In this document: positions 1-19,620 of the stretch, piece after piece
Layout of the letters: the number at the start of each line of letters is the position of its first letter
Numbering within the stretch: position 1 is the stretch's first letter
Translations under genes and position numbers: made by a program
Source: an uncultured bacterium
GTDB taxonomy: Bacteria; CSSED10-310; CAZUFC01
Direction: 5' to 3'
Assembly (NCBI GenBank): GCA_964619725.1
Contig: CAZUFC010000030.1
Coordinates: 1-19,703 of the forward strand
DNA length: 19,703 nt
The notes under the pieces: model-generated
What the model was told of the DNA's origin: nothing
The model's database searches: none
What the model saw: the letters and a program-made list of their open reading frames with translations, nothing else

Positions 1-536
1 TTGGATTGTCCAAAAATTTGGGCTGATTTTGACCCTATTTTAACGATTTCTGAATTTAGTCCGACTTTCATTGAGTCATTTGGAAAACCTATGCTAAACA
101 AATCCAAAACCATGAAGAGCGTCAGTTGCATTTTTTCAAAAGGAGTTTTTGGTTTCCATCCATAATATGATAAAGATTTCAGTAATTGGATGCCGATCCA
201 AGTTAAACTGCTGAACAGTTCGTACTTCTTAAAAAATAACTTTGCTCTTTCGTCGCTTTTACCGATTTCTCTATACTGCAATCCGTTACTGCTGCTTGTT
301 GGCTTTGAAAAGAATCCTTCGGATTGTACAAATTCTCTAACCGATCTTCGAAAAATAGTTATATAATTAAACGGATCTTTGGAATTCAGAAATGACTTTC
401 TCTGGTTTTCAACCAGTTTCTTTCTAAAATATTCCTCCTGTTTTGAACTAATCACCTCTATTTTTTTCATTTTACTCAGATATTCTTCAAATAGCTCATT
501 CATTTCTCTTCTTGTCGTGTTTGTTCTATTCCCCAT
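1..536 (-). CDS. Hypothetical protein, 3'-truncated by the window edge (>=178 aa, MGNRTNTTRREMNELFEEYLSKMKKIEV...)
   Basis: Not in the ORF track. Manual translation from ATG at 536 has no stop down to the window edge. It starts 23 nt after the stop of the 1031-aa gene on the same strand, which is operon-like spacing. Confidence 0.8.
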   Translation of the reverse strand, partial: MGNRTNTTRREMNELFEEYLSKMKKIEVISSKQEEYFRKKLVENQRKSFLNSKDPFNYITIFRRSVREFVQSEGFFSKPTSSSNGLQYREIGKSDERAKLFFKKYELFSSLTWIGIQLLKSLSYYGWKPKTPFEKMQLTLFMVLDLFSIGFPNDSMKVGLNSEIVKIGSKSAQIFGQS

Positions 537-559
537 AACAAAAAATATCTCACAAAAAA

Positions 560-3500
560 TTATTCTTTTACTTCCGAGCAGATTTCTTTGAGTTGTAAAA
601 ATTTAATCCTGGACGCTACCTCCCATATGCTGCAGAGCGTGATCATTCTTCGGTAATAAAATTCGCTCATTATGCCAGGATGAATTACGTATTGTCCCTT
701 TCTCGATTTTATCATTCCAGGACGAATTATTTTGCCGCTGCTTATTTCATTTTTGAGAAGAGGTACAATATATTCTAAATAATCCCCGATCTTTTCTTGA
801 ATGTATGTACCTGAGCCCTCCATGTACATTGACTTAGGAAATTTTATCCCCTTCATTTTGTTGTGCAGCTCCAGAAAGTGGGTATCTATTTTCTTTAACC
901 AACCCCCACTGATTTTTAATAATTCGTGAATGTGACACGTAACGAACCATAGATTTCTCTCATAATCTTCCGACTCTCCATCTTCAAAACTCCGCCTTAA
1001 AAAAGGACAAACTTCTCCACATTCGTTAATCATCTCCCGTATCTTTTCAAACGGCTTATTCTGCCTTACGGAAATATAGAGCTCATCATTATCAATCAAA
1101 TCGTGGTTCGTTAATAAAAAACGCCATATACTCATCTGAATCTCGTGTGGAATGACCCCTGCCTCATATTCTTTTTCGTGAGAAAAGAGATAACCGCTCA
1201 GTACATTATTAAAAAAGAACCAGGTGATGATATTGTAATTCTCATTCCCTACTCCACTTACTCGTCTGCAAAACAAATCAGCAAAAACCTCGATAAATAG
1301 AGATTTTCTCGGTTCCGAGAAATCCGATCCTGGACAGGATTGCCGCAATTCATCAGGCAATAAATATGAGTAATAGAAATGACCGATTTCATGTATGCCC
1401 TGAATGAATGTTCCGGGATACTGAAGATGAAAAAAATTGATCAGATTGAGGTTTATTCCGAATTGACTGAAACGCTTGACATGTGTGTGCATTTCTGAAT
1501 AATTTGTAACCACTGTTAGTGCACGAGGATGCAATTTATCGATTTTTTTGCCGCCCTTTTCAAGAGCTTTTACAATCATATCGAGGATGAATTGATGCCC
1601 GCCTTGCGCCGCCGACAACAACTGCATAAGGTCTCCTTTAAAGACCGTGGTTATATCGTGCCTCTCGGATATAGGGTATCCCTGTGAATACCTGTTGTCG
1701 AAAGCCATCCTGAATTTATTGAGCATCTCAGTAAAATTCTCATGTTTCTCGGCTAAAGCTTGATTTTTGAGCTCAGTTCGTAATCTTGAGACGAGCTCCT
1801 GTTTATCCGAATTCTCATTATTTATATTGCTGTTACTGAACAATATTTCGATCGCGTCCTTTAGCCTCTCTGCCATATCGAAGAGATCAAACATGTAGTC
1901 CAACTGAAATTCATCACTTATGGAATCGGCAAATGTACCAATAATATACCTTGCAGCGAATTCCAAGGGTTGCGATAGAGAAGACCTGAAAAGATTCATC
2001 GAAAAATCCTGTTTTATAATCCTTGAATATAATTTCATCAACTTTTCAGGAGTGACGTTTGGTGTTTTAAATTTCTGAACGGCTGCATCAACCTGCGGCG
2101 TAACGGCTAATTCGGTGTTCATTTGCAGGACGTGTGATATATCATCTCGGTTAAAGGGAATTAGCATGGATCGAATTATCAAATAACCGATAATGAAGTT
2201 CCTGGGAGTGACTGGATTGAGTTTCTGATCGTTTTTAGCTTCATTTTTCGGCCTCGAATCGGGAAAAGTGGGCTTTATGGCTAAGTCGAATTTGCCGAAC
2301 AGTTCCTTAGGTTTTTCCAGCAACAATCCATAACTACAAAGTTTTTTCAATTCCTTGAGAATATAAGGAAGATGACCGGGCTTCAAAAGCAGCTTAATGG
2401 AAGGATACAAAAAGAATTCTTCCGAATCCGAGGTTTTCAGAGAAGCTATCCATCCTGAGTCATTATAATTCTTTTCGGTCAAAAACGAAGAAATATCAAG
2501 AATGACATCATTCGCAAAATTCTCTAATCCCTTCTTTTTCTCCTCTCCAGATTTTATTTCTTCTAAATTCTTCTCTTGTTTTTGTGAAATCTTATCGGAT
2601 GAAACAACTTTTTTGAATTTTGAAGCTTTCTTCATTCCATCCACGTAAAATTCAAACGGCATTCCAATCGTCGTAAAAGTCGTACTGCACACATGAAAAT
2701 TTTTTAAACTTTCAAGACTTAATTTTTTAGGCCGTCCTTCACTGTTTTTGTACCACCAACCCAATCTTGAACTGAACCAACGCCGAAAATCAGTTTTATC
2801 CCCCTCGAAAAATATTTCTTTTAAGCTGGTTTGCTGAATCTGTGTGCTTAAGATCGATATCAATTGCAGGCTTGTACTCTCCATCAATATCACAGCTTCA
2901 TTCATCCCGTGTGAACGAAAAGGATAAACAAACAACCTTTCTTTATCATCCCAAGAGATTTTACAATTCAACGTATGGCATTTTCTCTCCAATGCTAAGA
3001 CGAATCTTTTTATTAACTGGTTTCCGAATGCCATAGATAATTGCGAATGAAACTTTATTTTCATTAGAGCGGCAAACGGTTGTTGTGGTCTGTCTGGCTG
3101 CATATCCTTGAAAACTGCAGTCGAATCCTCAGCTGGTTTTAAAATGATAGGAGTTCCTATAGTAAAATGTTGGTGTGTCGCCACATCCAGATGCGACAGG
3201 TGTGCGGGCAAGTTTAAATCCGCAAAGTAGGATACGGCAAGCAGATCAAAGCGTCCCCACGTGAAATAAAGCGAAGGCTTCAAAGTATCGTCTTTGGACA
3301 AAGTATCAAAATCTTTTAGACTGGGATATGAACTTTCCGGATCATCGATTTTTTCGTTTTTACGTTCAGTCCTTATTGCATTGATGCGCTCGCGAGCTCT
3401 CACTATCTCACTGTTAATTTTTCTCCTGAAACTTTTTCGATCTCGGATTCCTAATTTTTTCTTCAAATTCTCTGTCCAAAAATATCTCTCAAGATCCTGC

Positions 3501-3655
3501 AGTCGGTACAGACGCTCTATTATAAATCGCTGTCTTACTTCATTGGCTAATGCCGTTTCACAACCTGCCAAGGCAGAAAATTCACAGATCAAGACTCCCG
3601 TGTGCTTTAAATCATATCTCTTTAATTGCTCAGGTACATAAAGAACCATTCTCAA
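560..3655 (-). CDS. Large hypothetical protein (1031 aa) with Lrp/AsnC-like G-x-F-D beta motifs and a C-terminal HExxH zinc-metallopeptidase-like motif
   Basis: Long ORF. GAGG precedes TTG3655/ATG3649. Motifs: TWGRFDLL (aa ~132-139), LFGKFDLAI (~452-460), HEIGH (755-759), EVFADLF (789-795). The CDS is secure; the domain calls are inference. Confidence 0.85.
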   Translation of the reverse strand: MRMVLYVPEQLKRYDLKHTGVLICEFSALAGCETALANEVRQRFIIERLYRLQDLERYFWTENLKKKLGIRDRKSFRRKINSEIVRARERINAIRTERKNEKIDDPESSYPSLKDFDTLSKDDTLKPSLYFTWGRFDLLAVSYFADLNLPAHLSHLDVATHQHFTIGTPIILKPAEDSTAVFKDMQPDRPQQPFAALMKIKFHSQLSMAFGNQLIKRFVLALERKCHTLNCKISWDDKERLFVYPFRSHGMNEAVILMESTSLQLISILSTQIQQTSLKEIFFEGDKTDFRRWFSSRLGWWYKNSEGRPKKLSLESLKNFHVCSTTFTTIGMPFEFYVDGMKKASKFKKVVSSDKISQKQEKNLEEIKSGEEKKKGLENFANDVILDISSFLTEKNYNDSGWIASLKTSDSEEFFLYPSIKLLLKPGHLPYILKELKKLCSYGLLLEKPKELFGKFDLAIKPTFPDSRPKNEAKNDQKLNPVTPRNFIIGYLIIRSMLIPFNRDDISHVLQMNTELAVTPQVDAAVQKFKTPNVTPEKLMKLYSRIIKQDFSMNLFRSSLSQPLEFAARYIIGTFADSISDEFQLDYMFDLFDMAERLKDAIEILFSNSNINNENSDKQELVSRLRTELKNQALAEKHENFTEMLNKFRMAFDNRYSQGYPISERHDITTVFKGDLMQLLSAAQGGHQFILDMIVKALEKGGKKIDKLHPRALTVVTNYSEMHTHVKRFSQFGINLNLINFFHLQYPGTFIQGIHEIGHFYYSYLLPDELRQSCPGSDFSEPRKSLFIEVFADLFCRRVSGVGNENYNIITWFFFNNVLSGYLFSHEKEYEAGVIPHEIQMSIWRFLLTNHDLIDNDELYISVRQNKPFEKIREMINECGEVCPFLRRSFEDGESEDYERNLWFVTCHIHELLKISGGWLKKIDTHFLELHNKMKGIKFPKSMYMEGSGTYIQEKIGDYLEYIVPLLKNEISSGKIIRPGMIKSRKGQYVIHPGIMSEFYYRRMITLCSIWEVASRIKFLQLKEICSEVKE

Positions 3656-3706
3656 ATTGCCTCATGCGCCATAAACCCGCAATTTTTGAAATTTTATGAA
3701 ATTACG

Positions 3707-3742
3707 AAAACTATTCCGCCTTCTAAAACTATTCTGCCCTCT
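3707..3742. repeat. Tandem 18-bp direct repeat (2 copies, 16/18 identical)
   Basis: AAAACTATTCCGCCTTCT (3707-3724) followed by AAAACTATTCTGCCCTCT (3725-3742), in the intergenic gap. Confidence 0.7.
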
Positions 3743-3755
3743 CTGGTATTCCTTC

Positions 3756-4097
3756 TTACTTCTTCTTTTTCGAAAAACCGCAGATGGCTAAATAATCAAT
3801 GTTATGCTTTTTGCAGGTCTCCAGAGCAAATTCATCAAATTTTATATCATTCGGCTGATCCCGCTCGAAAATATGATCATTTTCTGATACATGGCTGCTT
3901 CGATAACCCCGAATGTCCTCATATCCGAAATACTTCTCATAATCCTGCGGTCCTGTGCGTTTCTTGAAATCAATTCTATCTTCCCAGTAATTTGTCCTGT
4001 TAATCCAATCGTCCATCTCTTCCGGCATACTGAAATGATTTGTCTTTTTACTCCCGAATTTGTCTTCCCTACAAGATTTCCTGCTGCCGCGCGACAT
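3756..4097 (-). CDS. Small hydrophilic hypothetical protein (113 aa, MSRGSRKSCREDKF...)
   Basis: AGGAGG RBS 5 nt before ATG 4097 (the ORF track start at 4163 looks too long). Co-oriented with the two downstream genes. Confidence 0.65.
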   Translation of the reverse strand: MSRGSRKSCREDKFGSKKTNHFSMPEEMDDWINRTNYWEDRIDFKKRTGPQDYEKYFGYEDIRGYRSSHVSENDHIFERDQPNDIKFDEFALETCKKHNIDYLAICGFSKKKK

Positions 4098-4262
4098 TCC
4101 AACCTCCTGAGTGAATGAAGTTTGCTCTGTGGGCGGACCACACCCTTTATTAGAATGAAGCAAAAATCATACCCACATTCCGCATCTTTTCCGTCTTTCG
4201 ATCCATCCTCAACACACATTCCATCAATTTAACAATCAGTCAATATCATTAAACAGAAATAT

Positions 4263-4298
4263 CATGAATCATTTATCATCAATGATCCATGCTGTCAA
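4263..4298 (-). promoter_or_regulatory. Candidate sigma70 promoter of the left cluster, overlapped by a palindromic operator
   Basis: Minus strand TTGACA (4298-4293)-N17-TAAATG, with TG at the extended -10 position; the -10 is imperfect. Inverted repeat CATGAATCATT-N7-AATGATCCATG at 4263-4291. Confidence 0.5.
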
Positions 4299-4750
4299 GA
4301 AAAATTTTCGCTTTCTATGCGTTTTCATCTCATATCATCAGAAAGCTCCCAAGTATCTAATACTGATTTAAAAAAAAAAAATCAAATTCTTTTTAAAATT
4401 ATTCCTCGTCTTCTTTTGAGTTCACGAACAAAACAAACTCCCTCGTTTATGGATCAAAAACCGCAGTGACTGTCCAGCATTAAATTTTAAATCGATAATC
4501 GAGTTTATGGACAGGCGCTCCCTAAAAAATTTCCACATAAATACGTTAATACCGACGTGATTACGTAAATCATTATTTCATAGGTTTTAGCACAATATCG
4601 GTGAATTCGCGGCACTGCAGGGAGCAATTGAAAAAATTGAACTTATGGAATTGCCATACCCAAAGACGGCATTTAAGCAGAGCATCCTTTCATAACGACG
4701 CCTGCGGGATTTCTAAACGCCTTAAATAAAGTTTGAACATGACCTGTTAT

Positions 4751-4787
4751 TCTGAATTGTGTCCGCATACGGACAGTATAATTCGGA
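4751..4787 (+). other. Imperfect stem-loop / palindrome
   Basis: TCTGAATTGT-GTCCG-cata-CGGAC-agt-ATAATTCGGA. The two non-Watson-Crick pairs are G-U on the + strand. Confidence 0.45.
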
Positions 4788-4829
4788 CCTAAATTATCCG
4801 GCTTAAAATTCCATAGAAGTTTCCGCCGA

Positions 4830-4858
4830 TTGACACTCCCTTCATTTCCGACTAAACT
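4830..4858 (+). promoter_or_regulatory. sigma70-type promoter of the secreted-protein gene
   Basis: TTGACA (4830-4835)-17 bp-TAAACT (4853-4858), 59 nt upstream of ATG 4918. Confidence 0.75.
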
Positions 4859-4917
4859 TGTAAATGTAATCCGAAACGACAGGACGGTTTCGTCGGTCTT
4901 TGAAAAGGGGAAAAATC

Positions 4918-7900
4918 ATGAGATTCACGATACGACATAACAAGACATTTCATCAATTTTTAAGATTTGCCGGTCGCACGGGCGCACTCTTTTTCATTTT
5001 TTTATGCGGTTTTTCCTCAACCGCCGTATGGGGAACGGCAACGCCGACGCCAGAGCCTTCCGTCACGCCCACATGTCTTCCGCTTGTTGCAGATTTTGAA
5101 GCGCCGGAGCTTATATGCATAGGTGAACCTTCGTTGTTCCGGGATGCCTGCAGCGGAGACATTGTCGCCTGGTTCTGGATATTTTCCGGCGGCGGCATGT
5201 ATTTTTCTCAGGATGTTGTGCATACTTTCCAGGAGACGGGGAATCATGAAGTATATCTTCAGGTGCAGGATGTCTGCGGAAATTATGCTGAAGTTACTAA
5301 ATACGTTAACGTAGTGGATTGCCTGCCTCCTTTGTGGAATGTAGGGGAAGGGATACAGCCCGGATATGATGATGACTCGTCGCATCGATTGGACTGGAGC
5401 ATATACTGGACGCCGCTGTCCGATCAGCGCGATGAGATCAGATATACGGTTGAGCGTTCGATAGATGATTCCGAATGGATATCGGCCCCGGAAACGACGG
5501 GATTGTCGGGGTGGCATTATACGAATGAGTTCGGATATGAAGCGGGTGAAATGATCCGTTACCGTGTCAGGGCCGAATCAGATACGACAATCAGCAGATG
5601 GTCGTATACGGACGGCATACTTTATTCGGCTGAACCTTCAATCGGCCGCATCGTATTGAAGGACCCGGAAACAGACTCGATTACTTATACGAATGACGAT
5701 GAATTGAGAATATACCTGGAGAACGTTTCCGCCGGCGTATCCCGGATAAAAATTTCTGAGCATGCCGACTTTGATGGAGCGGAGTGGTTGGAGTATCCCC
5801 CGGCATCGGGTGATTACTATGTTTATGAGCTGGAAGAGCCGAACGACGGAACCCGGCAGATATTCGTAAAGCCTTCGGATGGTCAGCAGAAAGGATTGGC
5901 GGTGAATTCTCGTATCATCAGAGACACCAGGCCCGTTGAACCTTTGAAAGTCACTCTCATGGATACGGATGATTTTTCTCCTGTTCAGACCGATTCTCCC
6001 ACAGTATACGTTTTATTGGATTTAAGTACTGAGGAAGAGCTTATAGAGAACCCGGAAAAAGCGCCCGCAAGGATCAAATATACGGAAAACGCCGACTGTT
6101 CGGGAGGTTCCTGGGCGCTGTTCGAGCGTCCTTTGCCTCCTTATGATTTCACGGACGATACATACGGCGAAAAAGTTTTATATGTGATGACGGAGGACAG
6201 GGCGGGAAACCTTTCAGAATGCGTTCCCGGACGTATTCAGTATCTGGGAGGCGAGGCTTCTCCCGAAATATTGACGGCGGAAATAGCGGATGCTGATACG
6301 CTGAATGTTGATTACACGAACGACACGACCGTTCTGGTGCATCTGGAAACGAAAGGGGCCGTCTCGGAAATCCTCATCTGGGAAGGCGATGATCCTTCTG
6401 GAGCTTCCTGGCAGGGATTCACGAGCTGGTTCACCTACACCTTCGCATCGTCCCAGGAGGGTCTCAAGGAGGTTAGAATCCAGATACGAGGTCCCGAAGG
6501 CCGGGAATCGGAAATTATAACCGCCCGTACTATTCTTGATGCGACTTCTCCGAAACTAATGCTTGCGGGATACTGGAACAGTTCCCTTTCGCCGGTTAAC
6601 GACGGCCTGGTCTCGATCTTCTGCTATGTGGACGAATCCTATCCCGCGAATGTAGAAATCATATACGACGGAGAGCCAACCGGCTCGTTTTTACCTCAGC
6701 ATCCCGACATACCCCAGGTGTTTCATCTGCAGGACATTCCCGTCGGTCCTATGGGGGCCGCATCCAGGCACCTGTTCGAGTTGCGCGCCTCAGACCTGGC
6801 CGGCAACATCAGTTCCGTATGGCCTTATTTGACTGTAAATTACGCCTCAACGGAAAGCAGCGGATCGGCAGCATCCGGTCTGCAGAAAATTTCAGAAGCG
6901 CTGAGCAGTTTCGTTAAACTGGAAGGATGGAACATCGTCTCACCCTTCCCCGATTACGGACCTCAAATCATGGCTGCAGGCTGGTGGAACAGCGGCATTA
7001 CCGAGATGAACGGCGGAACGCTCATCCCCATGGCCTATGTCTTCGACGCAATGGGAGCCTCTAACGTTCGAGATGTTGAACTGCTGTATTCTCACAGGAC
7101 GACCGGGTTCAAACTCATGGACGACGGCGGACCGAACGACTTCAATCCTGACGACGGAATATTCGCGGCGAGCACGGAGCTTCCCGCGGGAATACCCGGC
7201 GGTCGATACTTCTTCCAGCTCCAGGCCGAAAACAAACAGAACATCACATCAGGACTGTGGCCTTATCTGGAAGTGATGCATGAAAATACGCCGCCTGTCG
7301 CCTGGATCGATTCTCCCGCGGACGGCGCTTTTTATGCCGCAGGCTCCCAGATTCATTTCAAAGGCGATGCCTTCGACAGGGAAACCGGAGATGTTCCCGG
7401 TTCTTATTTCAAATGGTTCTGGGTTAAAAACAGCTTGGGTGAGCAGTTCGCTGAAGGCAAAGAGGTCTGGACAGACCTGCCCGAAGAAGCCAGGGGTATC
7501 GTTAAAATCAGACTCATGGTTCAGGATGCGCTCGATCCGGATAACGTCGCGGGCACTGCAGAAACGGAGATTTCCCTCCAGGGCGATCCGCTGAACCTCG
7601 CTCTCTCCGCAACGCCCGATTCCGGTAAATTCCCCCTTTCCGTTCACTTTTCCGCAAATGTCTCCGGCGGCTTCCCTCCATTCCGCTATGTATGGTACTT
7701 CAGCGATGGAGATGAAATATTCGAATCCGACTCGCATGAATTTCGCCATACCTTTGATCATCCCGGCGTCTATGATGCATACTCGCTTATTAAGGATAAA
7801 AGTTCCTCCATCGTTTACGATCAAATATCCATAGAAGTCACCCAAAATGAAATTCCCGACCTGGTGATCGTCTCGCCGGAAAACAACGCTCACTTCTACG

Positions 7901-8430
7901 ACACCGATACTATAATGCTGCTGGGGACCGCCATGGACCGGGAAGACGGCGCTCTGCCCGACCAGAACGTGCACTGGGAATCAAACCTGGACGGATTCCT
8001 CGGCGACGGCTGGAACTGCTTTCCCGCTAACCTGTCGCCTTCAGACAACGCACACCAGATCGTTTTCAAAGGTCATGACTCCTTTAATGACGAAGGACTG
8101 GACAGCGTAGAACTCATCGTCGATCCCTGGACGCCCGTACGCGAACACATGATCCAATTCAACGGTTTCAAACTCTTCTCCTGGGTCCTCTTCGAAGACC
8201 TCCTTCCCGGAGAACAACTGCGATGGGACTGGCTCATCAACGGCAGAACCGCCGCCATAATTACACTCACCGTCGAACAGGCCGTGGAAGATGAAATAGA
8301 AATCACTACTGGTTTCCCCGGCAATCCTCAGTCAGGCGACCTCATCGAAGTCCGCTTCCATTATAAACATACCGGCGCCGAACAGTTCCGGCACGAACCC
8401 GAATTCGTGGATCACTATTCCTTCGATTAA
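4918..8430 (+). CDS. Large secreted multi-domain PKD / Ig-like beta-sandwich protein
   Basis: AAGGGG RBS before ATG 4918. Basic/hydrophobic signal peptide ending AVWG, then a Pro/Thr linker (TATPTPEPSVTPT). PKD-like motifs (ADF...WFWIF...HTFQETG..EVYL; PLSVHFSA...YVWYFSDG...HTFDHPGVY). Very acidic, with internal repeats. Confidence 0.85.
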   Translation: MRFTIRHNKTFHQFLRFAGRTGALFFIFLCGFSSTAVWGTATPTPEPSVTPTCLPLVADFEAPELICIGEPSLFRDACSGDIVAWFWIFSGGGMYFSQDVVHTFQETGNHEVYLQVQDVCGNYAEVTKYVNVVDCLPPLWNVGEGIQPGYDDDSSHRLDWSIYWTPLSDQRDEIRYTVERSIDDSEWISAPETTGLSGWHYTNEFGYEAGEMIRYRVRAESDTTISRWSYTDGILYSAEPSIGRIVLKDPETDSITYTNDDELRIYLENVSAGVSRIKISEHADFDGAEWLEYPPASGDYYVYELEEPNDGTRQIFVKPSDGQQKGLAVNSRIIRDTRPVEPLKVTLMDTDDFSPVQTDSPTVYVLLDLSTEEELIENPEKAPARIKYTENADCSGGSWALFERPLPPYDFTDDTYGEKVLYVMTEDRAGNLSECVPGRIQYLGGEASPEILTAEIADADTLNVDYTNDTTVLVHLETKGAVSEILIWEGDDPSGASWQGFTSWFTYTFASSQEGLKEVRIQIRGPEGRESEIITARTILDATSPKLMLAGYWNSSLSPVNDGLVSIFCYVDESYPANVEIIYDGEPTGSFLPQHPDIPQVFHLQDIPVGPMGAASRHLFELRASDLAGNISSVWPYLTVNYASTESSGSAASGLQKISEALSSFVKLEGWNIVSPFPDYGPQIMAAGWWNSGITEMNGGTLIPMAYVFDAMGASNVRDVELLYSHRTTGFKLMDDGGPNDFNPDDGIFAASTELPAGIPGGRYFFQLQAENKQNITSGLWPYLEVMHENTPPVAWIDSPADGAFYAAGSQIHFKGDAFDRETGDVPGSYFKWFWVKNSLGEQFAEGKEVWTDLPEEARGIVKIRLMVQDALDPDNVAGTAETEISLQGDPLNLALSATPDSGKFPLSVHFSANVSGGFPPFRYVWYFSDGDEIFESDSHEFRHTFDHPGVYDAYSLIKDKSSSIVYDQISIEVTQNEIPDLVIVSPENNAHFYDTDTIMLLGTAMDREDGALPDQNVHWESNLDGFLGDGWNCFPANLSPSDNAHQIVFKGHDSFNDEGLDSVELIVDPWTPVREHMIQFNGFKLFSWVLFEDLLPGEQLRWDWLINGRTAAIITLTVEQAVEDEIEITTGFPGNPQSGDLIEVRFHYKHTGAEQFRHEPEFVDHYSFD

Positions 8431-15980: not shown

Positions 15981-17135
15981 ATGTTTGGAAAGAGCATAAC
16001 CCTTTTTAAAATATTCGGATTCAAGGTGCGAATCGATTTCAGTTGGCTGTTGATCGCGCTGCTGATAACCTGGTCGCTGGCGGAAGGGGTGTTTCCTGAG
16101 AATTATGAAGGTTTATCCGAAACCGTATACTGGTGGATGGGCATAATCGGAGCGTTAGGACTGTTCATCTCCGTCGTCTTTCACGAGTTGACCCATTCGC
16201 TGGTTGCGCGGCAGTTCGGTATGCCTATGAAGGGGATAACTCTGTTTATTTTCGGCGGCGTGGCAGAGATGGAAGATGAGCCGCCCAGCGCCAAAGCGGA
16301 ATTTTTCATGTCTGCGGCAGGACCTCTTTCCAGCATACTGCTTGGTTTTATCTTTTACGGGATTCTATCACTGGGCGGGAACTGGCCCAAATCCATCACA
16401 GGCGTGCTGAGTTACCTGCGCTGGATTAATTTCATTCTGGCCGGATTCAATTTGCTGCCTGCTTTTCCGCTGGACGGAGGACGCGTTCTGCGCGCCATTC
16501 TTTGGGGATGGAAGAAGAAAATACGATGGGCCACCAAAGTGACATCGAGCATCGGAAAAGGTTTCGGTTATTTTCTTATGTTCACGGGCATCTTTAATCT
16601 TATCGTCGGCGGCTATATGGGCGGATTATGGTGGTTCCTTATCGGACTCTTTCTCTCCAACGCCGCAAAAATGTCTTACCGGCAGCTCGTCACCAAACAG
16701 GCGCTCAAAGGCGAACCGGTCCGTCGCTTCATGAAATCAGAACCTGTTACCGTTCCTTCCGGCATCACGGTGAGAGATTTTACGGAAAATTACCTGTACA
16801 AACATTATTATAAAATGTTTCCGGTGTCGGATGACGGTGAGTTGAAAGGCTGCATCACGACAAAGGACATTAAAGAGATTCCTCAGGAAGAATGGGACCA
16901 GCGTAAAATCGAAGAAGTGTACAGGTCATGTTCGGAGATCAACGCGGTAGGCCCTGACACTGATGCAGTCCAGGCTCTGACCATGATGAACAAAACCGGC
17001 AACAGCCGACTTATGGTCATGGAAGGCGATAAACTCATAGGCATCATTACCCTGAAAGATTTGCTCAGGTTCCTGTCGCTTAAACTTGACCTGGAAGAAG
17101 AAGAAATTGAAGATCAAATGCCGGTTAATCAATAA
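15981..17135 (+). CDS. Site-2 protease (peptidase M50) with C-terminal tandem CBS domains
   Basis: HELTH in a TM segment, LFIFGGVA, AAGP, FNLLPAFPLDGGR, then a CBS pair (VRRFMK...FPV...GCIT; GIITLKDL). Confidence 0.95.
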   Translation: MFGKSITLFKIFGFKVRIDFSWLLIALLITWSLAEGVFPENYEGLSETVYWWMGIIGALGLFISVVFHELTHSLVARQFGMPMKGITLFIFGGVAEMEDEPPSAKAEFFMSAAGPLSSILLGFIFYGILSLGGNWPKSITGVLSYLRWINFILAGFNLLPAFPLDGGRVLRAILWGWKKKIRWATKVTSSIGKGFGYFLMFTGIFNLIVGGYMGGLWWFLIGLFLSNAAKMSYRQLVTKQALKGEPVRRFMKSEPVTVPSGITVRDFTENYLYKHYYKMFPVSDDGELKGCITTKDIKEIPQEEWDQRKIEEVYRSCSEINAVGPDTDAVQALTMMNKTGNSRLMVMEGDKLIGIITLKDLLRFLSLKLDLEEEEIEDQMPVNQ

Positions 17136-17366: not shown

Positions 17367-18518
17367 ATGAGTTTACCGACACATGATGAATTAAAGAAAT
17401 TAACTGAAACGAAAAATAAATGGTGCATTTCGATGTATTCTCCTCTCCATCCCTCGGAAACCAGGAAGAACAGATTACATTTCAAGAATCTGGCCGCTGA
17501 TTCAGAAAAACAATTGGAAAAACTTGGATTGAAACAAAATGAGAGGACTGAACTGCTTTCACCGGCCAAAGAATTGCTGGATAATTCAGAATTCTGGAGC
17601 GAATGGAAAGGAGGGTTAAGCTTATTTATATCTCCTTCTGAAAGCCGAAGATATATCATTCCCATCGAAGTCGAACCGTTGAATATCGTCAATGAAAGGT
17701 TCCATCTCAAGCCGCTGCTGCCGGCTTATATGGAGGATTACCAGTATTATCTTCTCACTTTGTCCCTGGGCGACGTCAAACTTTATAAAGGAACGCTTTT
17801 CAATTTACAGGAGCTGAGCCTGGAAAATTCCGATATACCGAAGGACATAAGCGCTTTTCTGAAATACGACGATCCGGAATCTCAGCTTCAGTATCACACC
17901 GGAACTCCTTCCGGACCGTCGAACCGTTCTGCTGTATATCACGGTCAGGGTGTAGGCAAGGATGAGACAAAGACTAACATCCTGCGATTTTTTCAGAGTG
18001 TTGACAGGGGATTCAACGATTACATCAAGGACAAGAATCTTCCGCTTCTGATTGCAGGACTGGATCATCTGTCATCCATATATTCGGAAGCGAATTCCTA
18101 TCCCCCTTTACTGCATAAGACCATAAAGGGGAATCCGGAGACGATGAATACGGAAGAGCTTCACAAGCAGGCGAAAGGCTTTATGCAGGAAAACCTGGAA
18201 AAAGCGCGCAAGGAGGCTGCTGATAAATTCAACCGCTTTTCCGGTTCAGACCGCGCCTCCCATGACTTAAATTCAATTGTGCCTGCTGCTTTCCATGCCA
18301 GGATAGAAATATTGCTGGCTGCGTCAGATACCTCAATATGGGGAAAATACCTGGCCGAAGAAGAGAAGTTGATTATCCATGAAAAGCAGGAACCCGGAGA
18401 TGAAGACCTGGTGGACCTGGCAAGCGTGAGAACCTTTCTGACGGGAGGAAAAGTCCATTTGATCAAGTCATCGCAAATGCCCGCTGATTCGCCCGTCGCT
18501 GCTGTTTACCGGTTCTAA
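17367..18518 (+). CDS. Bacterial archaeo-eukaryotic release factor family protein (baeRF7/baeRF3-like)
   Basis: AGGAGG RBS. Family-typical motifs CISMYSP, FW...GLSLF, FHLKPLL, YHGQG, PLLIAG, GNPE, DEDLVDLA...GGKV, C-terminal AAVYRF. No GGQ motif. Confidence 0.8.
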   Translation: MSLPTHDELKKLTETKNKWCISMYSPLHPSETRKNRLHFKNLAADSEKQLEKLGLKQNERTELLSPAKELLDNSEFWSEWKGGLSLFISPSESRRYIIPIEVEPLNIVNERFHLKPLLPAYMEDYQYYLLTLSLGDVKLYKGTLFNLQELSLENSDIPKDISAFLKYDDPESQLQYHTGTPSGPSNRSAVYHGQGVGKDETKTNILRFFQSVDRGFNDYIKDKNLPLLIAGLDHLSSIYSEANSYPPLLHKTIKGNPETMNTEELHKQAKGFMQENLEKARKEAADKFNRFSGSDRASHDLNSIVPAAFHARIEILLAASDTSIWGKYLAEEEKLIIHEKQEPGDEDLVDLASVRTFLTGGKVHLIKSSQMPADSPVAAVYRF

Positions 18519-19146: not shown

Positions 19147-19620
19147 ATGAAGCATTGTCAGAAATGCAACAAAGAATATGAAAACGATGAAATGAAAAAA
19201 TGTCCGGAATGCGGAAATTTCCTTCAGGACGGACCGCTCCCGGGAAAGGATTTTCAGCTTGAACGGGGAGACTGGGATATGGATATGAGGGAGGCCGCCC
19301 GTGTGGAAAAGCAATGGCAGGCGGACATTATCAGGGGAAGGTTCAACAGTGAAGGCATTTCATCGCGTCAGATTCCCTCGGAAGAAGGAAGAGAATTCCG
19401 TCTGCTGCCTGAGGAACCCCCGGAAGACGCTATGGAAAGCATAGCCGTTATGGTGAAGGAAAAGGATTACGACAGAGCCAGGGAAATATTCAACAGCATG
19501 ATGAAGGAAGGACAGGCCAGATTCCAGGTATGCCGGAAATGCAATTTCGTCTACGGGGCAGAACTGAGAAGTTGCCCCAAATGCGGGACCCTGGCCCAAA
19601 GCCGATCCGCTGAATTATAA
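19147..19620 (+). CDS. Protein with N- and C-terminal zinc-ribbon-like modules flanking a DUF2007/PII-like domain
   Basis: CQKC..CPEC and CRKC..CPKC. The middle ADIIRGRFNSEGI...IAVMVKEKDYDRAREIF resembles DUF2007. AAGGTG RBS. Confidence 0.75.
   Translation: MKHCQKCNKEYENDEMKKCPECGNFLQDGPLPGKDFQLERGDWDMDMREAARVEKQWQADIIRGRFNSEGISSRQIPSEEGREFRLLPEEPPEDAMESIAVMVKEKDYDRAREIFNSMMKEGQARFQVCRKCNFVYGAELRSCPKCGTLAQSRSAEL

Follow-up and report, generated by a model that had tools for sequence, protein, structure and literature searches.

Background

Peptidases of the ImmA/IrrE type (MEROPS M78, PF06114) are cytoplasmic proteins in which an edge strand leads into an HExxH helix, with an E-x-x-A-[DN] helix further on; the group includes Zn-peptidase antitoxins such as that of RosmerTA, and ImmA and IrrE cleave cognate repressors. 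M48 peptidases (HtpX/BepA/Ste24, PF01435) also join HExxH to a later E-x-x-A-D helix. Pairs of toxin and antitoxin built on RelA/SpoT-type small alarmone synthetases are known as toxSAS; a full-text literature search found no work joining toxSAS with a metalloprotease antitoxin. A tandem ferredoxin-like topology occurs in chlorite dismutase/HemQ, DyP peroxidases, ABM-type duplications and Chlorobium CT0912, and we know of no such protein fused to a zincin domain. Among defence systems, RosmerTA has a known layout in which a Zn-peptidase antitoxin accompanies a toxin of unknown function (10.1101/2022.05.11.491447).

Here we compare these systems with a locus from an uncultured bacterium whose genome is repeat-rich and whose phylum is sparsely sampled. 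The window, by which we mean the whole stretch of 19,703 nt that was analysed, begins with three genes, gA, gB and gC. The preliminary description read them as an operon around a large peptidase, possibly a defence or signalling system. Our analysis supports that reading in part.

Results

A compositionally foreign block of three genes

Positions 1–4298 hold three minus-strand ORFs: gA (3756..4097, 113 aa), gB (560..3655, 1031 aa from a TTG, or 1029 aa from an alternative ATG at 3649) and gC (3..536, open at the window end). The ORF list and codon-frame scores confirmed that these ORFs are real, with the co-orientation and the gaps of 100 nt (gA–gB) and 23 nt (gB–gC) first described. The longest frame in 1–559 spans 185 codons, whereas none of 500 shuffles exceeded 121, and the longest in 3656–4298 spans 136 codons, which 1% of shuffles reach. 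Because such lengths are rarely or never reached in shuffles, the open frames of the gA and gC regions are not chance. Codon scoring with a model derived from gB gave +7.9 nats for the gA frame and +19.3 nats for the gC frame, each ahead of all five alternatives, and every alternative ORF overlapping either gene scored negative.

The GC content of the block is 0.379, compared with 0.516 for the gene at 4918–8430, as the described AT-richness had it, and with 0.472 (sd 0.026) on average for the genome. Of 7924 genome segments of 4.3 kb, just 0.3% have a GC content as low as this. Its composition marks the block as foreign and supports the horizontal acquisition proposed earlier. The genome's own high-copy repeats occur inside the islet as well as next to it, which marks it as resident rather than as bin contamination. 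By Kyte-Doolittle hydropathy (mean at most 1.32 in any 19-residue stretch), gA, gB and gC have no signal peptide, membrane segment or hydrophobic N-terminus, which agrees with the cytoplasmic module envisaged and supports a predicted cytoplasmic location for all three proteins. We found no integrase, tRNA, repressor or HTH gene in 1–4900, and no recognisable defence genes in the remainder of the window.

The highly charged gA protein is an orphan, with no family match and no detectable relatives anywhere searched; its ATG lies 7 nt after an AGGAGG ribosome-binding site. The gA–gB spacer contains a tandem 18-nt direct repeat (3707..3742, copies 89% identical), possibly a regulator site. A shared promoter carrying a palindrome had been proposed upstream. 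The elements exist on the minus strand at 4263..4296, where a TTGACA hexamer (4296–4291) is directly followed by a palindrome (14-nt arms at 4263–4276 and 4278–4291, 86% complementary), but a consensus promoter scan made no call there. Positions 1–4950 contain no more promoter-like sites than chance would give (11 observed against an expected 13.4), and the hairpin at 4263–4291 was also listed as terminator-like, leaving the site a candidate for either a promoter with operator or a terminator-like hairpin. Further upstream, the intergenic region carries a copy (4435..4519) of a hairpin-forming, MITE/REP-like dispersed repeat of ~85 bp, with 333 BLAST hits over the genome's contigs.

An insertion element interrupts gC

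An insertion element breaks the coding sequence of gC at codon 161/162. Positions 1..53 are the right terminus of this multi-copy element; its body falls beyond the left end of the contig, and its terminal inverted repeat, in minus-strand orientation, is TCAGAAATCGTTAAAA. The assembly contains identical or near-identical stretches of 49–58 bp in 13 places, of which 12 are contig ends. Contigs from public runs that stop at this terminus are 1.8–2.5 kb long, with a depth of 138.7x versus 7.26x for the unique flank. Residues 1–161 of gC (536..54) are unique sequence, and residue 162 onward is encoded by the element; the ATT at 54..56, which is codon 161 (Asn), is the presumed 3-bp target-site duplication. 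Elsewhere, 3-bp duplications give unique pairings for seven left and right flanks of the element; a left flank ending in ATT is absent from the assembly, as is the rest of gC. The gene had been described as truncated at the contig end, and it is indeed open there, but since positions 1–53 are the end of a repeat common to 13 places, contig-end truncation is not a sufficient account. No relatives of gC were detectable anywhere searched, and neither a P-loop NTPase nor a nuclease was found in it. No terminator-like site was found between gB and gC.

gB belongs to a sparse family with a zincin-like core

The intact gB has no match in Pfam, NCBIfam, PADLOC or PHROG, no sequence relative in the PDB, and no viral relatives were found, including on viral contigs. 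An exhaustive HMMER search of 1.84 billion representatives returned four distant relatives at E≤1e-3, and context searches added further members to give a family of ten sequences. The relatives are 15–23% identical to gB, with homology spanning the full length in the five closest members. Family matches are absent from 40 related genomes and occur in one of 14 genomes of the phylum (that of gB itself) and in 2/285 genomes in the class of one relative, P0005.

In the translation of gB, a candidate zinc-binding and catalytic motif, HEIGH (residues 755–759; 1379..1393, minus strand), is followed after 29 residues by EVFAD (residues 789–793; 1277..1291, minus strand), which would supply the third zinc ligand from an ExxAD helix. 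H755, E756, H759 and E789 are invariant among the five closest members, and H755 and E756 are near-invariant across all ten sequences. Six of the nine full-length members keep HExxH and the downstream Glu despite ~20% overall identity, a conservation in distant relatives that bears out the giant putative peptidase placed at the centre of the block. In the other three the motif reads HEAAN and the Glu is missing, and catalysis is therefore not a property of the whole family; these three have kept full length and are 54% identical to one another. P0005 has Ala instead of the ExxAD Asp.

No peptidase family model matched significantly, the sole match being Peptidase_M78 at E=0.24 in one of five members, not gB. 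Profile-profile alignment (hhalign) of the strand and HExxH region gave P=5e-4 against the genome's own M78 (32 columns), the best of the gB peptidase comparisons, and P=6e-3 against its own M48; M48 versus M78 gave 3e-3, and a negative control with the N-terminal part of gB gave 0.4–0.8. The ExxA[DN] pattern recurs in this genome's own M78 (EKEAN, EKEAD or EDEAD) and M48 peptidases (EFSAD, ERQAD, EYLAD, EKEAD). Spacing from HExxH to Glu is similar in gB and M78 (29 and about 20–27 residues), whereas the Glu lies much further downstream in four aligned M48 proteins, as read by eye. Structural likeness to M48 is weak: the VIA match to E. coli BepA (6sar_A; rmsd 4.1 Å, 140 residues, model residues 675–948) has a Z of 6.0, a value that the tool itself flags as noise. 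Unlike M48 proteins, gB has no Pfam match, membrane segments or signal peptide. It also differs from M78 systems in not reaching the Pfam model, in the lack of a PADLOC match and of an Xre-type HTH in gB or gA, in being ~2.5–3 times longer, and in a predicted N-terminal module that M78 proteins lack. The sequence features support a zincin-type peptidase signature, through which gB would bind zinc and act as a protease.

A predicted double ferredoxin-like module lies in the N-terminal half

An AlphaFold2 model built on the ten sequences had a mean pLDDT of 49.8, with values below 50 for residues 919–1031 and most of 346–534. Because the model is poor, fold calls for gB are tentative. Residues ~15–345 (2621..3613, minus strand; mostly pLDDT 40–78, with 78 the local maximum) are predicted to form a double ferredoxin-like alpha+beta module of two beta-alpha-beta-beta-alpha-beta units. 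VIA-align matched this module to 23 chains of one alpha+beta-barrel superfamily, of the chlorite dismutase, DyP, ABM and CT0912 types (Z 7.9–10.6, 147–206 residues), at 6–13% sequence identity and rmsd 3.3–5.1 Å on the low-pLDDT model; the best Foldseek matches were HemQ and Cld (E 7e-3). A fold in common with tandem ferredoxin-like proteins does not imply a common function. Only D137, D146, E253 and P426 are invariant in all ten sequences, all in the N-terminal half, and K201, S248 and H321 in the module are near-invariant. The second ferredoxin unit gave a topologically sensible local alignment with GGDEF domains at P=0.023, where a true-homologue control of equally small alignment size reached 0.0078; the match is not significant and lacks the metal-binding Asp pair. 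No cyclase or polymerase was among the 50 structural matches listed. That the N-terminal half serves as a sensor is a guess.

Neighbours of gB relatives vary

Six distinct loci encoding gB relatives were compared, three of them kin (54% identity), and in none did we find a gene resembling gA or gC. So far as these loci allow a test, the three genes are not found together elsewhere, an outcome named at the outset as one that would refute the proposed system, and a conserved three-gene system is not supported. Since the gB relatives share only 15–23% identity with gB, the missing gA and gC count only weakly against a system confined to one lineage. Neighbouring genes vary from locus to locus. 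At G147, a 285-aa RelA_SpoT gene (PF04607, E 2e-19) follows the gB relative by 79 nt on the same strand and matches the PADLOC candidate model PDC-S33 (E 4.5e-7); at three loci, a convergent P-loop/pentapeptide/WD40 protein adjoins; and at G041 there is no partner gene. Likeness to the two-gene layout of toxSAS, toxin plus partner, is confined to the distant relative at G147. gC has no RelA_SpoT model match and does not resemble the G147 RelA_SpoT protein (E 1.2). No PADLOC model matched gA, gB, gC or eight gB relatives. The block does recall the layout of RosmerTA in setting a Zn-peptidase protein beside a small protein of unknown function (10.1101/2022.05.11.491447).

Discussion

The best explanation, to which we assign a probability of roughly 45%, is that this is the edge of a foreign islet whose gB is a regulated intracellular zinc protease, with gA and gC as orphans rather than conserved partners. 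An anti-phage or signalling system of all three genes, with gB as sensor-protease and gC or genes beyond the element as effector, would suit the low-GC islet, the tight gB–gC spacing without an intervening terminator-like site and the codon signature common to the genes; the RelA/SpoT gene beside one relative, the P-loop/WD40 protein beside three others and the RosmerTA precedent also favour it. We nevertheless find it quite unlikely, given that gA and gC have no detectable relatives and no co-occurrence with gB relatives in six loci, that PADLOC matched none of the three genes or eight relatives, that no defence genes are recognisable in the remainder of the window, and that gC is disrupted. 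The invariant residues of the N-terminal half and the persistence of full-length members that lost HExxH and the Glu could instead mean that gB is a pseudo-enzyme or scaffold, its HExxH a relic or non-proteolytic and its chemistry seated in the N-terminal module (D137, D146, E253, K201, H321). The GGDEF alignment leans the same way, but it falls short of significance, lacks the Asp pair and has no cyclase or polymerase among the 50 listed structural matches to accompany it, and three candidate zinc ligands have been kept in 6/9 members; we regard this reading as unlikely.

The foreign composition, the sporadic distribution of gB, the IS and MITE copies at both ends and the leading rank of the M78-like alignment would also fit an islet carried by, or left over from, a mobile element, with gB as its ImmA/IrrE-type anti-repressor protease. 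This is highly unlikely in our estimate: integrase, tRNA, repressor and HTH genes are missing from 1–4900, relatives on viral contigs were not found, and gB, which has no HTH, is ~3 times as long as this genome's own HTH-M78 proteins. We give equally little weight to a decaying foreign remnant without present function, in which gB stays open by chance while gA and gC are in decay. The interruption of gC, the orphan status of gA and gC and the weak promoter evidence speak for it, but a 1031-codon frame is open in 38% GC DNA with every family-conserved residue intact, and the coding-frame signature persists in gA and gC.

On the preferred reading of a foreign-islet edge, positions 1–4300 would be what survives of a small, horizontally acquired low-GC islet. 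gA and gC would be lineage-specific genes, at best co-transcribed with gB, and because gC is interrupted by the insertion element, the function of the operon is probably impaired here. A defence role for the islet is speculative. gB is a member of a very sparse, sporadic, unannotated zincin-like family, and may consist of three parts: the N-terminal ferredoxin-like module, a middle region of helices and, at the C-terminus, a zincin-type metallopeptidase core of the M48/M78 kind, with edge strand, HExxH helix and ExxAD helix. The N-terminal module may bind a ligand or partner and thereby gate cleavage of a specific protein substrate, and gB would then have an accessory role of the stress or conflict type, not a housekeeping one.

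An AT-rich islet with three open reading frames

The window, 19,703 bases long, starts at the first base of a contig of 70,867 bases that belongs to an assembly of 9.17 Mb and 344 contigs (90.9% complete, 6.5% contamination). Block 1–4298 at its left end holds three minus-strand open reading frames, with the positions and gaps reported in a preliminary description. gA (4097..3756) encodes 113 aa and starts at an ATG that an AGGAGG precedes by 7 nt; 100 nt further on, gB (3655..560) encodes 1031 aa from a TTG, or 1029 aa from the ATG at 3649 used by the source annotation; and after another 23 nt gC (536..3) begins and is still open where the window ends. Frames as long as those of gA and gC do not arise by chance: the longest open frame in 1–559 spans 185 codons against a shuffled maximum of 121 (500 shuffles), and the 136 codons open in 3656–4298 were equalled in 1% of shuffles. 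A codon model trained on gB scored gA at +7.9 and gC at +19.3 nats, above every other frame, and gave negative scores to all four overlapping alternative ORFs.

The AT-richness first seen by eye was borne out genome-wide. The block has a GC of 0.379, whereas the genome averages 0.472 (sd 0.026); a value as low is found in just 0.3% of 7924 genome windows of 4.3 kb each, and GC3 is 0.41 in gB, 0.46 in gA and 0.35 in gC against 0.57–0.60 in the adjoining genes. These values support an islet of foreign composition. None of the three products begins with a hydrophobic stretch or contains a membrane-like segment (the highest Kyte-Doolittle mean over 19 residues is 1.32), which agrees with the reported lack of signal peptides. 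The shared promoter carrying a palindrome held up only in its second half. The palindrome is present at 4263–4291, with 14-nt arms that are 86% complementary, immediately after a TTGACA hexamer; the promoter scan made no call there and found 11 promoter-like sites where 13.4 were expected, which is chance level. The hairpin scores terminator-like too, and we regard a promoter at this site as a weak candidate.

Two other sites in the block may be regulatory: a tandem 18-nt direct repeat, 89% identical, in the gA-gB spacer (3707–3742) and an inverted repeat with 12-nt arms overlapping the gB start codon (3649–3690). Searches of the window and of the end of contig C5, another contig of the assembly, gave no Rfam match, and no tRNA was found. 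The 600-bp intergenic region between gA and a divergent gene contains an approximately 85-bp dispersed repeat (4435–4519) with an internal hairpin, CTGTCCA...TGGACAG, and 333 BLAST hits across the genome's contigs. That divergent gene (4900–8430) has normal genome GC; its 1176-aa product contains PKD and Big_7 domains and, by eye, a signal-peptide-like N-terminus. Further along, a 383-aa protein (17367–18518) matches the bacterial archaeo-eukaryotic release-factor families (baeRF_family7, E 8e-44); its gene lies between an M50/CBS peptidase gene (15981–17135) and a zinc-ribbon/DUF2007 gene (19147–19620) and may be part of a separate module.

An insertion element interrupts gC

Positions 1–53 of the window are the right terminus of an insertion sequence, which is multi-copy, has inverted repeats and duplicates its target. 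This stretch recurs in the assembly, with 12 of its 13 occurrences at contig ends and a different flank each time, and another 12 contig ends are closed by a second, related terminus. The inverted-repeat core TCAGA[AG][AT]TCGTTAAAA is common to the 13 right and the 12 left termini, the terminal inverted repeats being imperfect. Seven left and right flanks could be paired one-to-one by unique 3-bp duplications (AGC, ACT, TCA, TTC, ATC, TCT, GAA), showing that the element makes 3-bp target duplications. At the window the presumed duplication is ATT (54–56), and no flank ending in ATT was found among the 12 left termini of the assembly; the unpaired ends are three right (ATT, TTT, AAT) and two left (both AGT).

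Contigs from four public runs of one study of microbial-mat metagenomes, one of which may be the source, gave an estimate of the size and number of copies. The terminus lies at the ends of contigs of 1.8–2.5 kb, with a depth of 138.7 against 7.26 for the unique flank, which points to an element roughly 2.3 kb long in about 19 copies. No contig in the four runs bridged an empty insertion site. The element body, and with it any transposase, is missing from the binned genome, where 25 contig ends are broken by it (for example C5:117–169, C313, C281 and C250). So repetitive an element breaks the assembly, and the present contig cannot be lengthened across it.

The gC frame runs on without a stop for at least 217 codons, and the element boundary falls inside it; residues 1–161 are therefore unique sequence and residue 162 onward is element-encoded. 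The third gene had been described as truncated by the contig end. It is indeed open at the window edge, but gC is broken by the insertion element and not merely by the end of the contig. Its remainder is absent from the recovered sequence.

Other repeats were seen in the same genome. One is a related terminus family (TCAGAGATCGTTAAAAAGGGGTG...). A short non-coding repeat of about 250–310 bp, ending in ...CTTACCGGAAGGACAC, occupies C5:1–55 and about 20 other places (for example C122, C326, C198 and C274); on C5 its terminus lies 65 bp before the right terminus of the insertion sequence, and it may be the interior of that sequence or a nested element.

gB belongs to a sparse, unannotated family

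gB and gA matched nothing in Pfam, NCBIfam, PADLOC or PHROGs, gB having no Pfam family at E≤10. PDB sequence searches with gB and the family alignments A1 and A3 returned only a chance coiled-coil (E 3.5), and a word-index homologue search returned gB only, both for gB alone and for a 5-sequence profile. An exhaustive HMMER search over 1.84 billion cluster representatives recovered four relatives, P0002–P0005, of 904–1167 aa (E 2e-10 to 1e-4), each a singleton cluster. A metagenome scan added four more, one of them partial; the context searches used a 2-sequence alignment, the 5-sequence alignment having no conserved stretch. Ten sequences align over their full length, with 15–23% identity to gB. 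In P0003 we noted that a stretch of about 118 residues (SSLLSMDDILKWEDIL...PQEIAKS) is repeated exactly within the protein, its second copy separating HExxH from ExxAD; we take the repeat for either a mobile insertion or an artefact of assembly.

Six-frame profile searches gave no gB match in 40 related genomes, the query genome as the only match among 14 genomes of its own phylum, and, in the class to which P0005 belongs, matches in 2 of 285 genomes; P0005 comes from an uncultured Ignavibacteria MAG. For gB the ESM Atlas offered only unnamed "hypothetical protein" clusters, to be read as leads only (best score 0.95, 733 aa, 53 members, commonest phylum Verrucomicrobiota). No viral relative appeared in two IMG/VR scans or among BFVD folds (best E 0.098). 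The gB family is thus sparse and unannotated in every library searched. Nothing on it was found in the literature; the family is unnamed and so not searchable by name, and this result does not show that it is undescribed.

A proposed zincin-like core in the C-terminal part of gB

The peptidase signature of gB is conserved. Its HEIGH motif occupies residues 755–759, with H755 and E756 near-invariant in the ten sequences and H755, E756, H759 and E789 invariant in the five closest members. E789 lies 29 residues past H759 in the sequence EVFAD, on a predicted helix (782–799). HExxH and the Glu are intact in the same six of nine full-length members (HEIGH twice, HEIAH, HEVMH, HEVGH and HEAGH, with EVFAD, EVFCD, EIFCD, EILGD, EIFCA and EIGAD as the downstream variants), and the Asp of the EVFAD type is kept in eight of nine. 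The other three members, 54% mutually identical, read HEAAN and have N or Y in place of the Glu. In an AlphaFold2 model of low confidence, HExxH falls in helix 747–765, preceded by strands at 711–717 and 734–740, with pLDDT of 43–70 there. Structure alignment of the peptidase region with VIA gave Z 6.0 for both the E. coli M48 protease BepA and DPP III, noise level by the tool's own note. gB thus shows two marks of the gluzincin type of zincin: an HExxH motif, placed on a helix by the model and conserved among homologues, and a Glu on a downstream ExxxD/ExxAD helix as candidate third zinc ligand.

We compared this region with peptidases of the same genome. In gB a predicted edge strand, the HExxH helix and a later E-x-x-A-D helix follow one another in the pattern shown by the M78 (ImmA/IrrE) and M48 peptidases of its own genome. 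With hhalign, the gB region aligned to three own-genome M78 domains at P=5e-4 (probability 32%, over 32 columns only) and to M48 at P=6e-3 (probability 6%). The control comparison of M48 with M78 gave 3e-3, and the N-terminal part of gB, taken as negative control, 0.4–0.8; we read the P values of the gB region as no worse than the M48-M78 control. Against Pfam, gB had no match above the curated cut-off to Peptidase_M78 (PF06114), the sole trace being E=0.24 in one of five aligned members, and no match to M48 (PF01435). A fused or adjacent Xre-type HTH partner was sought as well, and no HTH family was found in gA, gB or gC; the own-genome M78 proteins have an N-terminal HTH-like stretch by eye. 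Motif pattern, profile scores and near-absence from Pfam give gB the look of a zincin of the M48/M78 kind that belongs to neither family. Its motif places it inside the known zincin superfamily, with peptidase activity and zinc binding as candidate properties.

A predicted double ferredoxin-like module at the N-terminus

AlphaFold2 reached a pLDDT of 36 on the single gB sequence and, with ten sequences, a mean pLDDT of 49.8 and pTM of 0.46, rising locally to 78 in the N-terminal part. In this model residues 15–345 are predicted to form two ferredoxin-like units. The VIA matches listed for residues 1–345 include 23 chains of the chlorite-dismutase, DyP, ABM and CT0912 superfamily (Z 10.6–7.9, rmsd 3.3–5.1 Å, 147–206 residues); the best Foldseek matches were HemQ and Cld, at only E 7e-3. 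A double ferredoxin-like fold of the dimeric alpha+beta barrel kind is tentatively proposed on this modelled structure. D137, D146, E253 and P426 are the sole columns without variation among the ten sequences; all four fall within the module or close behind its end.

A GGDEF or cyclase palm identity for the module was considered and is unsupported. With hhalign, residues 100–450 aligned to own-genome GGDEF domains at P=0.023, the segment of the metal-binding DxD lying in a gap, and to cyclases at P=0.39, in a low-power test in which a true-homologue control (GGDEF against cyclase) reached P=0.0078 with alignments equally small; neither family is among the 50 VIA matches listed. The apparent combination of a double ferredoxin-like module and a zincin core in proteins of 700–1170 residues matched no named architecture.

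Neighbourhoods of gB relatives

gA and gC were not seen to accompany the gB family. Neither has a paralogue in the genome, and tblastn against seven loci (six distinct) with gB relatives found no look-alike (best E 0.45), which does not bear out the expectation that homologues of the three genes co-occur. This neighbourhood sample is small and partly kin. gC had no relative in a 5.8-billion-cluster search, no usable match in the ESM Atlas and two PHROGs matches of unknown function (E~0.05). Nor did the proposed defence connection find a system model: PADLOC-DB 2.0 returned no family for gA, gB or gC at E≤1 and none for eight gB relatives at E≤0.01, its only matches being neighbours of relatives (a RelA_SpoT protein to PDC-S33; WD40 proteins to HEAT-ARM_XIII and mad8).

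The surroundings of the relatives vary. The Ignavibacteria gene has no partner: a class II ribonucleotide reductase gene lies on one side and a convergent UDP-glucose dehydrogenase gene on the other. In genome G147, the gene for a 285-aa RelA_SpoT protein (E 2e-19; PADLOC candidate PDC-S33, E 4.5e-7) lies 79 nt downstream of the gene for a 716-aa relative. In three metagenome loci the HEAAN members lie tail-to-tail with a large P-loop/pentapeptide/WD40 protein (L020:3295–7524, minus strand; L018:3020–6241; L019:7126–7824). Variable neighbours, sporadic distribution and foreign composition fit an accessory or conflict-type gene.

Some details of these loci are recorded here as observations. The G147 pair resembles a two-gene toxin and partner module; its RelA_SpoT gene is at L016:6334–7191 (contig C27), and a DNA methyltransferase-like gene follows about 3 kb further downstream, past groES/groEL. 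Read by eye, the L020 protein (1409 aa) starts with a stretch resembling a restriction endonuclease and also has a P-loop NTPase, pentapeptide repeats and some 12 WD40 repeats. A RelA/SpoT-like effector identity for gC was rejected, no similarity having been found.

Proposed role of gB and alternatives

In our best reading, gB would be a regulated cytoplasmic zinc metalloprotease and would recognise a ligand or partner through its N-terminal double ferredoxin-like module. By analogy, its nearest functional counterparts may be ImmA/IrrE-type proteases and Zn-peptidase antitoxins. Extending the analogy, gC could be a partner controlled by gB, and its interruption by the insertion sequence would fit the loss of a gene that was costly to keep. 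A wider proposal, which we consider unlikely, makes the gB family a modular sensor-protease hub for conflict systems, in which the N-terminal module would sense an invader-derived or stress cue and the zincin domain would cleave or release a swappable effector. In one lineage this would be a RelA/SpoT nucleotide-pyrophosphokinase toxin and here the orphan gC, silenced by the insertion sequence as toxic; the lineage with the decayed peptidase site would have a nuclease-NTPase-WD40 partnership.

The preliminary description had interpreted the block as a foreign three-gene module with a possible defence role. Its foreign islet and its giant protein with a conserved peptidase signature stand; the three-gene system and the defence role find no support. 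A true three-gene defence system has lower odds than a regulated metalloprotease: the 23-nt gap between gB and gC speaks for it, and against it no gA- or gC-like gene was found in the six distinct loci and no PADLOC model matched any of the three proteins. Lower odds also attach to gB as a pseudo-enzyme with its chemistry in the N-terminal module: in its favour, the residues invariant in all ten sequences lie in the N-terminal half and three members have lost the HExxH; against it, six of nine full-length members keep both HExxH and Glu.

Two further alternatives concern the islet as a whole, and we likewise rate them below the metalloprotease reading. The block might be cargo of a mobile element, as its composition, the sporadic distribution of the family and the repeat copies at both ends could suggest; against this, 1–4900 showed neither integrase nor tRNA nor HTH gene, and the viral scans gave no relative. 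Or it might be a decaying remnant, of which the broken gC would be a sign; the full-length frame and intact motif of gB speak against that.

For annotation, the lesson is that the "operon" consists of one conserved gene and two orphans. A family as extremely sparse as this, of foreign composition and with neighbours that change from locus to locus (RelA/SpoT, P-loop/WD40), looks as conflict or accessory genes would be expected to look, which makes gB a reasonable, low-priority candidate for defence screens. If the metalloprotease reading is true, the intracellular regulatory metalloproteases, a group that includes anti-repressor proteases and Zn-peptidase antitoxins, would gain in gB an unannotated family whose architecture is new.
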